NCBI GenBank assembly: GCA_964630025.1
Contig: CAZVRG010000004.1
Location: 1-45,657, forward strand
Length of the DNA stretch: 45,657 nucleotides
Source: an uncultured Candidatus Saccharibacteria bacterium
Lineage (GTDB): Bacteria > Patescibacteriota > Andersenbacteria > UBA10190 > CAIZMI01
Direction of reading: 5' to 3'
This document shows, in pieces, positions 7,317 through 7,492 of this stretch (positions within the stretch are counted from its first letter, which is position 1; each line of letters starts with the position of its first letter). The notes below the pieces were generated by a model. The model was not told the origin of the DNA. It did not search any database and saw only the letters and a program-made list of their open reading frames with translations. The translations under genes were made by a program, and so were the position numbers.

Positions 7317-7492
7317 GAGACCCCAGAAACCGGCGCACTGTTCTCGTGGCAAACACGCCGGCAGAGCCGGACGGTTGCCATGAGAACCCTTCGGGCTCGG
7401 GTTTCGCTCCGCTCATCACTCGGCGTATGTCCAATACGCCTCGCTCGGTGCTCGCTCCAACCCTTCGCATCTCATCGCGTTTTTGGGGTCTC
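7317..7492 (+). repeat. ~175-nt structured repeat, copy E1 (3' of the pilin operon)
   Basis: Outer stem GAGACCCCAGAAAC/GTTTTTGGGGTCTC. Stem 2 is GTTCTCGTGGCAA/TTGCCATGAGAAC, capped by CCGGCAGAGCCGG. Stem 3 is GGCGTAT/ATACGCC. Conserved blocks are TTCGCTCC and TCGCTCGGTGCTCGCTCCA. It starts 5 nt after the stop codon. Confidence 0.85.

Follow-up and report, generated by a model that had tools for sequence, protein, structure and literature searches.

What is a repeat of about 175 nt that stands directly behind the stop codons of three unrelated genes, and how does it come to be there? The question is raised by the 45,657-nt contig CAZVRG010000004.1 of a bacterium of the Candidate Phyla Radiation (CPR, Patescibacteria), referred to below in its full length as the window, in which three + strand copies of the repeat (E1, E2 and E3) are present. 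The first-pass annotation of this DNA had proposed a structured RNA or a mobile repeat of the miniature inverted-repeat transposable element (MITE) type beside stop codons. The proposal was supported, and none of the three outcomes named there as refuting it (no further copies, no covariation after the addition of sequences, a match to a described family) occurred. The copies were found where they had been placed, with the end of E2 refined to 29734 and E3 to 43981-44157, and their distances from the stop codons, put at 0-5 nt, were 4, 3 and 0 nt for E1, E2 and E3, respectively, behind genes that are real. E1-E3 are members of a family of folded and mobile repeats, not described before, of the ultra-small bacteria of the CPR/Patescibacteria.

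E1, E2 and E3 are homologous and were aligned over their full length with a mean column identity of 79 %. The most conserved part, the 20-mer CTCGYTCGGTRCTCGCTCCA, has three exact occurrences in the window and none in 100 shuffles. All three copies fold better than their own shuffled sequences (z of -5.3, -7.7 and -7.3 for E1, E2 and E3, respectively), the minimum free energy of E1 being -79.6 kcal/mol. The linkers and stems quoted in the first-pass annotation were correct in all three copies, and its claim that the fold is under selection, with stems changing by compensation, gained strength as sequences were added. Covariation statistics were computed on an alignment of 20 copies with 53 modelled pairs. 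Of the cells in these pairs 88.6 % were paired, compared with 71.2 % in column shuffles, none of 500 shuffles reaching the observed value, and with 34-42 % in slid controls with the partners moved by 1-3 columns. Compensatory changes on both sides were seen in 42 of the 53 pairs, and helices 6-10, which form the core domain, were 91-99 % paired. This covariation is among the clearest obtainable from about 20 sequences.

The core domain deserves separate mention, as two strands of it had been described as conserved linkers. Their sequences stand as given, but they are not unpaired: TTCGCTCC... and CTCGYTCGGTRCTCGCTCCA pair mutually, with G-C dinucleotides split by conserved Y.Y mismatches. At alignment columns 100/140 of the core, C-G was replaced by U-A in E2, in locus L012 and in further copies of the 20-copy alignment (loci outside the window carry L numbers). 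The diverged copy at L020 4846-4990 changed three GC/GC steps into GU/AC or GA/UC by complementary substitutions, while the mismatched pyrimidines stayed unchanged. The interior G-C pairs of the core helix are therefore real, since they covary while the mismatches remain fixed. The idea that core conservation is caused by six GCTC direct repeats serving as protein-binding sites was rejected because the strands of L020b changed complementarily and not in parallel.

At least 22 copies of the element were found by covariance model across several Patescibacteria lineages, in two forms, one long (174-181 nt) and one short (116-123 nt), so the first-pass expectation of further copies was borne out. 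By exact-pattern scans, 11 true copies were detected among species-representative genomes and another 6 among metagenome contigs; model R1, built from eight long copies, recovered the pattern-scan copies and found more. The hosts are Uhrbacteria, Kerfeldbacteria and the window organism, for which Andersenbacteria and Parcubacteria supply the proteins closest to its NusG and LigA. Among the sources of copies are the Hainich and NC_groundwater samples. Apart from the element itself, a tRNA is all that the loci have in common with the window, and assemblies often break inside the element. In the window itself no further full copy was found by covariance model search; a weak match at 23479-23594 on the - strand (E 0.04) lies inside the thyX open reading frame (ORF) and was treated as chance. 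Contigs of CAYIQM01 (L001, L002, L011, L013) are titled 'uncultured Gammaproteobacteria bacterium', and their pyruvate kinase is closest to Patescibacteria/Uhrbacteria proteins, so that at least this one among the metagenome-assembled genomes so titled is, judged by that sequence, a member of the Patescibacteria. The same title is carried by CAYWEH01 (L003) and CAYHPG01 (L007, L008), and the lineage check covers CAYIQM01 alone.

The family did not match any described one. A search of the whole window against Rfam 15 at gathering thresholds returned three tRNAs and nothing else, and E1 and E3 at E<=10 gave only one chance-level match, to SrbA (E=8), which answers the Rfam comparison proposed earlier. 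No match was found in PLSDB plasmids and GenBank phages by blastn or in IMG/VR by pattern, and a literature search on the element sequence and on CPR repeats and non-coding RNAs yielded no description. To our knowledge, neither interspersed repeats nor structured non-coding elements have been reported for CPR/Patescibacteria.

The position behind stop codons is a property of the family. Fourteen of 21 copies have their 5' end at -12 to +6 nt relative to the stop of an ORF that is co-oriented and measures 90 aa or more, as against 2.8 % expected for random position and orientation in the same loci (binomial P ~2e-17). A domain match was obtained for 12 of the 14 upstream ORFs (11 Pfam, 1 NCBIfam), and none for L011 1813-2511 and L032 6862-7503. 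The upstream genes are unrelated and encode a PilX-like protein, NusG, an FxLYD-domain protein, Pol III delta, PolA, a LigB-type dioxygenase, a solute-binding protein, an RNase H-like exonuclease, NrdR, KhpA, ribosomal protein L21 and a type IV secretion system pilin. In L008 and L011b the upstream ORF runs 3 codons into the element. A T-R-A triplet at or within 3 nt of the 5' junction was present in about 15 of 18 copies, including 4 copies without a long upstream ORF; this motif is inseparable from the stop codons themselves.

The mobility of the element is supported by the comparison of filled and empty sites. Four orthologous sites are empty in close relatives, as the empty-site check suggested by the first-pass annotation had envisaged. 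The nusG site occupied by E2 is empty in L024, L025 and L027, whose NusG is 94 % identical, and in L028-L030 (83 %); NusG is 181 aa long and of equal length in the relatives without the element. At the E1 site, which is the spacer separating the PilX-like gene from ligA, no element is present in L031, L032 and L033, three relatives with conserved synteny, and the stop codon on the E1 side plus the next 'AC' is also present at the empty site in L031. Two pairs of sites are resolved to the nucleotide (slashes mark the junctions). In the pilin operon two genes overlap (ATGA; CTTCCGATGA...) in L033 and in the window, and in L032 a 177-nt copy scoring 166 bits lies between them; the filled site reads TGA/GCT[element]GCC/GATCG and the empty one TGA/ACACCCTGGGC/GATCGG. 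In L035 nrdR and pyk are separated by an empty 17-nt spacer, TGA/CGTGGTATACTTTTCGC/ATG, and in L002 the short form stands directly after the nrdR stop, TAA/[118 nt]/TACGATGGTATACT...ATG. In both pairs the insertion occurred at the first base after the stop without target duplication, and the natural stop codon and the C-terminus of the protein were preserved. The density of copies is patchy: this contig has 3 in its 45 kb, and about 120 kb of sequence from relatives has none.

No consistent flanking direct repeat that could represent a target-site duplication was found among the copies. The copy at L017 849-981 has AAGGT on both flanks and is the sole copy with a possible target duplication, which may be due to chance; its 3' end supplies two bases of the TGA of a gene for a TPR protein, and removal of the element plus one repeat would restore TAA. 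Taken together, the element inserts at the first nucleotides after stops, nearly always in the orientation of the gene and without target duplication.

With age, copies come to lie further downstream and lose sequence from their 5' side. Some 25-42 nt behind both E2 and E3 there is a second copy of which only the 3' part remains, starting with the exact 16-mer CCTCATCACGATTCTG (29776-29791 and 44186-44201) common to the two fragments; the tail homology of the fragment downstream of E2 had a p of 0.0015. The layout of a full copy plus a truncated one recurs at L031 1-100 and L032 1-110, and L020 carries two tandem copies, the downstream one being more degenerate. E1, E2, the E2 fragment, L031A and L032X have a homologous tail of 25-32 nt behind the outer stem (shuffle p of 0.0015-0.03; window lineage). 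A 3' transduction of the pilin-locus flank into the E2 tail was considered and discarded, as the similarity was not significant. On a simple reading, new copies enter between the stop codon and the resident copy, which subsequently decays. Alternatively, the truncated copies may have been inserted in 5'-truncated form, as happens with elements based on reverse transcription.

The fold itself consists of at least five helices per copy, and its parts are listed in Table 1. All three covarying stems described in the first-pass annotation (the outer stem P1, stem 2, here P2, and stem 3, here P4) are real, but their number was put too low, as the helix P3, a mini-hairpin (P2b) and the core helix have to be added. 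P1 extends outwards to 0-2 nt from the stop codon in E1 and E2, and in E3 it takes in the stop codon and the T-run. Its inner segment is variable and covarying and is bounded by the invariant junction strands CUGU and (U/G)UCGCAU. The apex of P2 in E1 is a GC-rich hairpin, CCGGC-AGA-GCCGG (7358-7370), closed by an R-N-A triloop, and the cap CCGGCA(G/C)AGCCGG proposed for stem 2 is present in E1, E2 and E3. P2b covaries, with CGC..GCG in L008 and U..A in L004 (alignment pairs 75-83, 76-82, 77-81). P3 is a fourth covarying stem (GGGTT/AACCC, GCGCT/AGCGC, GGCGT/ACGCC), inside which the core strands TTCGCTCCGCTCCTCGCTCA and CCTCGCTCGGTGCTCGCTCCA are opposed with the invariant mismatches UC x UC, U x U and UCC x UC. 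The whole of P2 together with the mini-hairpin is missing from the short form, and extra hairpins occur at the junctions of some copies (L003, L010, L022). The E2 and L032 copies have a common 5' end, GCTGCGACCGCA. Insertion into pre-existing terminator hairpins was dismissed as the origin of the outer stem, since one genome carries the same outer arms at several loci (L011, L013, L019).

Table 1. Window positions of the three copies, the stop codons before them, the parts of their fold and the truncated second copies
Feature	Position	Strand	Size or relation	Evidence or remark
E1, long form, structured domain	7317..7492	+	176 nt	covariance model R1, 169.5 bits, E 1e-41
E1, reach of outer stem	~7314-7497	+	homologous 3' tail to ~7517	
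E2, structured domain	29559..29734	+	176 nt	covariance model, 167 bits
E2, reach of outer stem	~29556-29738	+	directly past nusG stop; 3' tail to ~29766	
E3, structured domain	43981..44157	+	177 nt	covariance model, 174.1 bits
E3, reach of outer stem	43978 to ~44163	+	able to span the stop codon itself (43978) and the T9 run	
TAG stop of PilX_N-like pseudopilin gene (6845-7312)	7310..7312	+	1-4 nt 5' of E1	
TAG stop of nusG (29010-29555)	29553..29555	+	0-3 nt 5' of E2	
TAA stop of FxLYD-domain membrane protein gene (43198-43980)	43978..43980	+	abuts E3	
P1, outer stem, E1	7317..7330 with 7479-7492	+		
P1, outer stem, E2	29559-29575 with 29718-29732	+		
P1, outer stem, E3	43981-43997 with 44141-44157	+		
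P2 hairpin, E1	7340..7387	+		earlier stem 2
P2 hairpin, E2	29582-29629	+		
P2 hairpin, E3	44004-44052	+		
P2b mini-hairpin, E1	7387..7395	+	3 bp	CCC-UUC-GGG
P2b mini-hairpin, E2	29629-29637	+		degenerate
P2b mini-hairpin, E3	44052-44060	+		
Core domain, E1	7399..7463	+		
Core domain, E2	29641-29705	+		
Core domain, E3	44064-44128	+		
P3, E1	7399-7403 with 7459-7463	+		GGGTT with AACCC
Conserved G-C/Y.Y-mismatch helix, E1	7404-7421 with 7441-7459	+	enclosed by P3	
P4 hairpin, E1	7422-7440	+	caps the core helix	earlier stem 3
5'-truncated second copy (3' arm and tail only)	29772..29830	+	~40 nt downstream of E2	direct repeat, alignment
5'-truncated second copy (3' arm)	44182..44215	+	~25 nt downstream of E3	

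The copies in the window are spaced by 22 and 14 kb among housekeeping genes and are followed by ligA (E1), by an unannotated ORF and then rplK (E2), and by ftsW (E3). The unannotated ORF (29959-30423, 154 aa) separates nusG from rplK in the window organism, while in the relatives the gap holds a CsrA gene (L027) or nothing. A near-consensus sigma-70-type promoter (TTGACA, 17 nt, TG-TATGGT) lies at 29878-29906, between E2 and this ORF.

How can these properties be explained? We lean, with some reserve, towards a non-autonomous and promoter-less mobile repeat carried in 3' untranslated regions (UTRs), whose fold is the form recognised by a trans-acting enzyme and whose distribution reflects a T-R-A-like target combined with purifying selection. 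The element would be transcribed as part of the 3' UTR of the host gene, as its position and orientation suggest. Its single-stranded folded form would be recognised by a mobilising enzyme acting in trans, and the fold would be conserved for this reason. The nearest mechanistic analogue would be the HUH-type single-strand transposition of IS200/IS605, REP/RAYT and IS91. Spacers at the empty sites are tiny, contain few or no other T-R-A triplets and carry extended -10 promoters near the next start codon, so that few insertion positions are tolerable; because of these features, a short, stop-like T-R-A target and purifying selection in very compact genomes may together lead to the adjacency to stops.

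Several observations weigh against this explanation. No gene for a transposase, reverse transcriptase, TnpB or integrase was present in the window or in the gene tables of L024-L040, only selected flanking ORFs having been scanned elsewhere. The two ends of the element pair mutually, unlike the ends of IS200/IS605. Copies in the same genome are 20-25 % diverged with compensatory changes, which is unusual for a recent burst of a DNA transposon and fits better with selection in situ or with error-prone (RNA-mediated) copying. In L017 it is the 3' end of the copy that abuts a stop, that of the convergent TPR gene, and the orientation is opposite. Above all, it is ambiguous which strand is under structural selection, as RNA or as single-stranded DNA (ssDNA), and this is the main weakness of every mechanistic model. 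With RNA parameters the antisense strand folds better by 10-20 kcal/mol in 15 of 16 copies, and with DNA parameters it does so in 16 of 17, because the Y.Y mismatches become tandem G.A in GCGAGC contexts. Half-compensated pairs of the core point the same way, six being A.C in the sense strand (G.U in the antisense) as against two G.U; counted over all helices, 10 G.U and 8 A.C are not decisive for the strand. The context favours the sense strand, since the copies have the orientation of the genes and are placed within transcription units or at their ends. No promoter for the opposite strand was seen, and the sense strand is plausibly the only one transcribed.

The placement just behind stops could also mean that the element is a host module acting in cis in the 3' UTR, such as a 3' stabiliser of the mRNA, a processing site for RNase III/E, a terminator, a platform for the loading of Rho or a brake tied to the end of translation. 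REP hairpins of E. coli that lie no more than about 15 nt from a stop codon reportedly reduce translation through ribosome stalling and transfer-messenger RNA (Liang, Rudd & Deutscher 2015). Our copies are in sense orientation at 0-5 nt from stops, and a ribosome positioned on the stop codon would cover the base of the outer stem. The conserved strands are C-rich and G-poor, like a Rho-binding sequence, and the retention of the fold in diverged copies of one genome is what selection in place would be expected to produce. Terminators or T-runs are commonly found 3' of the element and not 5' of it (E3 with its T9, L004, L008, L011b, L014, L020a). The first-pass annotation had considered an elaborate terminator on account of the T9 at the end of E3, and this run is there in the sequence, but E1, E2 and most other copies have no T-run directly after P1. 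Only E3 (T9) and L011b (T6) do, a T6 run in L017 lying 5 nt further downstream, and a terminator scan called none at P1 of E1, E2 or E3. The same genes occur in close relatives without the element, which is therefore dispensable for them, and no functional theme unites the host genes. The sense strand is moreover the weaker fold, and a role in cis does not by itself account for the spread of copies. As the explanation of the family, such a module was judged unlikely.

An improbable option of another kind is a new class of promoter-less CPR element, whose complex fold, as RNA or as cDNA/ssDNA, would direct its own copying to the first nucleotide past stops, a 'stop-codon homing' dependent on read-through by the host. 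A reverse transcriptase or an HUH enzyme whose connection with the element is yet to be recognised might then be the mobiliser, or the invariant G-C and tandem-mismatch helix might be a new protein-binding or catalytic RNA core.

More doubtful still is a retroelement resembling a short interspersed nuclear element or a retron, in which a read-through RNA would be copied from its 3' end into antisense ssDNA by a reverse transcriptase acting in trans, with the fold as the recognition or priming structure. The layout is reminiscent of retron non-coding RNA, with a1/a2-like inverted repeats, a stem-loop and a long mismatched hairpin in about 170 nt, and with the invariant CUGU beside the closing stem. 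The high divergence within a genome and the strict sense orientation, which suits dependence on host transcription, fit such a scheme. So does the better fold of the antisense (cDNA-sense) strand, in which half-compensated pairs become wobbles. The 5'-truncated copies retain the 3' end, but deletion or nested insertion could also yield them. No reverse-transcriptase gene was detected in the window or adjoining any copy among the flanking ORFs scanned, the Rfam models of retron msr and group II introns were unmatched, the short form lacks a stem-loop equivalent to msr, and neither poly-A nor another signature of retro-insertion was observed.

A very low probability was assigned to an RNA-guide scaffold of the TnpB/IscB omega-RNA, IS110 bridge RNA or TIGR-type RNA kind, left behind, or spread, as the end of a non-autonomous transposon, with the flanking DNA as the guide. 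The size of about 120-180 nt, the closed multi-helix architecture with conserved internal loops, the lack of target-site duplication, the fixed short motif on one flank (similar to a target-adjacent motif) and an orientation ensuring transcription into the 3' flank would all suit such a scaffold. According to PMC12045711, CPR genomes are known hosts of RNA-guided systems (TIGR-Tas). Among the flanking ORFs scanned, none of the 22 copies has tnpB, iscB, IS110 or tas beside it, there is no hypervariable single-stranded guide segment within the fold, the HEARO and IS605-orfB RNAs of Rfam were unmatched, and the copies are dispersed singly and do not form arrays.

An attC-like integron site folded from the bottom strand, or an insert translated in frame, as are the palindromic elements of Rickettsia, is hardly credible: structure kept while sequence varies, a start right after a stop and a better antisense fold are also true of attC, and the L032 copy is read in frame into a prepilin leader peptide, but there is no RYYYAAC/GTTRRRY core, the copies lie 14-22 kb apart among housekeeping genes with no integrase in the window, and the lengths are not multiples of three, with a variable distance to the stop and no conserved frame.

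A coding potential of the element was rejected for similar reasons, as neither the lengths nor the stop offsets are multiples of 3 and only the L032 copy is in frame. Since that copy (L032 7500-7700) leaves the frame of the downstream pseudopilin open, gene callers extend the pseudopilin by 57 aa; a GTG in the 3' arm of the copy would give a normal short leader, MFLRSRRSSAG/FTFVEA.

Some further features of the window were recorded alongside the element. The 25-nt motif CAnnnGTTTCTAACGGGGTATACT occurs at 4914-4938, 20116-20140, 26300-26324 and 34951-34975 and ends, at the first three sites, 9-17 nt 5' of the starts of a pilin gene, a DUF362 gene and gyrB. The motif probably represents a promoter whose -10 box is TATACT, followed by a very short leader or none; similar TGnTA(T/C)ACT boxes are located 5' of ligA (~7527-7536) and 5' of pyk in L035 and L002. 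A second and unrelated repeat family is formed by a 78-nt palindromic unit rich in GGGAACAG, present at 4970-5047, 5557-5634 and 6252-6329. The last of these is translated in frame in the leader of a prepilin-like gene of a type IV pilus operon, and the leader of the L033 ortholog does not contain it; the other two lie just past likely gene starts, the in-frame reading having been examined for 6252-6329 alone. Three tRNA genes on the + strand (17141-17212, 17824-17895 and 17959-18033) are found downstream of the convergent iPGM gene, and a long coding repeat with a 12-nt period (13713-14200; CCnGGnCC...), rich in Pro and Gly, lies within a 795-aa CarboxypepD_reg-domain protein.

CPR/Patescibacteria make up a large part of bacterial diversity, and the family is widespread in the group. 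Its placement poses a testable question, namely how the element finds, or is filtered to, the site next to the stop in an ultra-compact genome. If it is true that a dedicated enzyme recognises the fold, the pair would be a candidate for a new single-strand or RNA-dependent DNA-insertion system. There are practical effects as well, as metagenome assemblies are broken at the element and start codons are wrongly called, as by the gene callers that read through the L032 copy.

Compared with known systems, the element is unlike the translated palindromic elements of Rickettsia, as most copies follow stops, the long form measures 174-181 nt and L032 alone is readable in frame. It shares with the msr-msd RNA of retrons the length of about 170 nt, the closing inverted repeats, the succession of a stem-loop and a long imperfect hairpin, and a conserved G by the closing stem; unlike a retron, it is dispersed in many copies with no adjacent reverse transcriptase or effector and has a short form without the msr-like part. 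Integron attC sites likewise have a defining structure while varying in sequence, have their start at the stop of the preceding ORF or overlapping it, and fold better in antisense. In our element the R'/R'' core sites are absent, the arms reading ..CA(A/G)AAAC and GTTT(T/C)TG, and there are no cassette arrays and no integrase, the upstream genes being core housekeeping genes.

The resemblance to MITEs such as Correia/NEMIS, ERIC and RUP is greater, as these too are small, non-coding and dispersed, have a terminal inverted repeat, are co-transcribed and show presence/absence polymorphism. Most copies of our element carry the terminal inverted repeat GAGACCGCA...TGCGGTCTC, with different arms in the subfamilies. 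The MITE alternative of the first-pass annotation stands as regards the inverted repeat and mobility, but a classical MITE finds no support, since target-site duplication is lacking and copies of one genome are only ~75-80 % identical. The compensatory nature of this divergence, the insertion at the base after the stop and internal helices that are not merely two IS ends folded back also set the element apart from MITEs, and no IS-like parent ORF was found in the sequence examined, which consists of fragments and not of whole genomes.

The REP/BIME-RAYT system and the IS200/IS605-derived PATEs are, like the element, extragenic, present in high copy number, orientation-specific, often located just past stops and free of target duplication. 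They are recognised as folded single strands, their stems covary between families and they are transcribed in 3' UTRs, in all of which they were likened to the element. A REP is a palindrome of 20-40 nt, unlike the 116-181 nt of our element with its five or six helices and conserved mismatch helix; the 5' flank is T-R-A and not a fixed tetranucleotide of the GTAG type, the core sequence is kept across several named Patescibacteria lineages, and no RAYT/TnpA was found nearby. Unlike in IS200/IS605 (PATE), there are no separate subterminal hairpins, the left and right ends being paired as P1. Although it departs from each of these systems in the features by which that system is defined, the element is in its behaviour closest to the REP/BIME or IS200/IS605-derived repeats and somewhat MITE-like.

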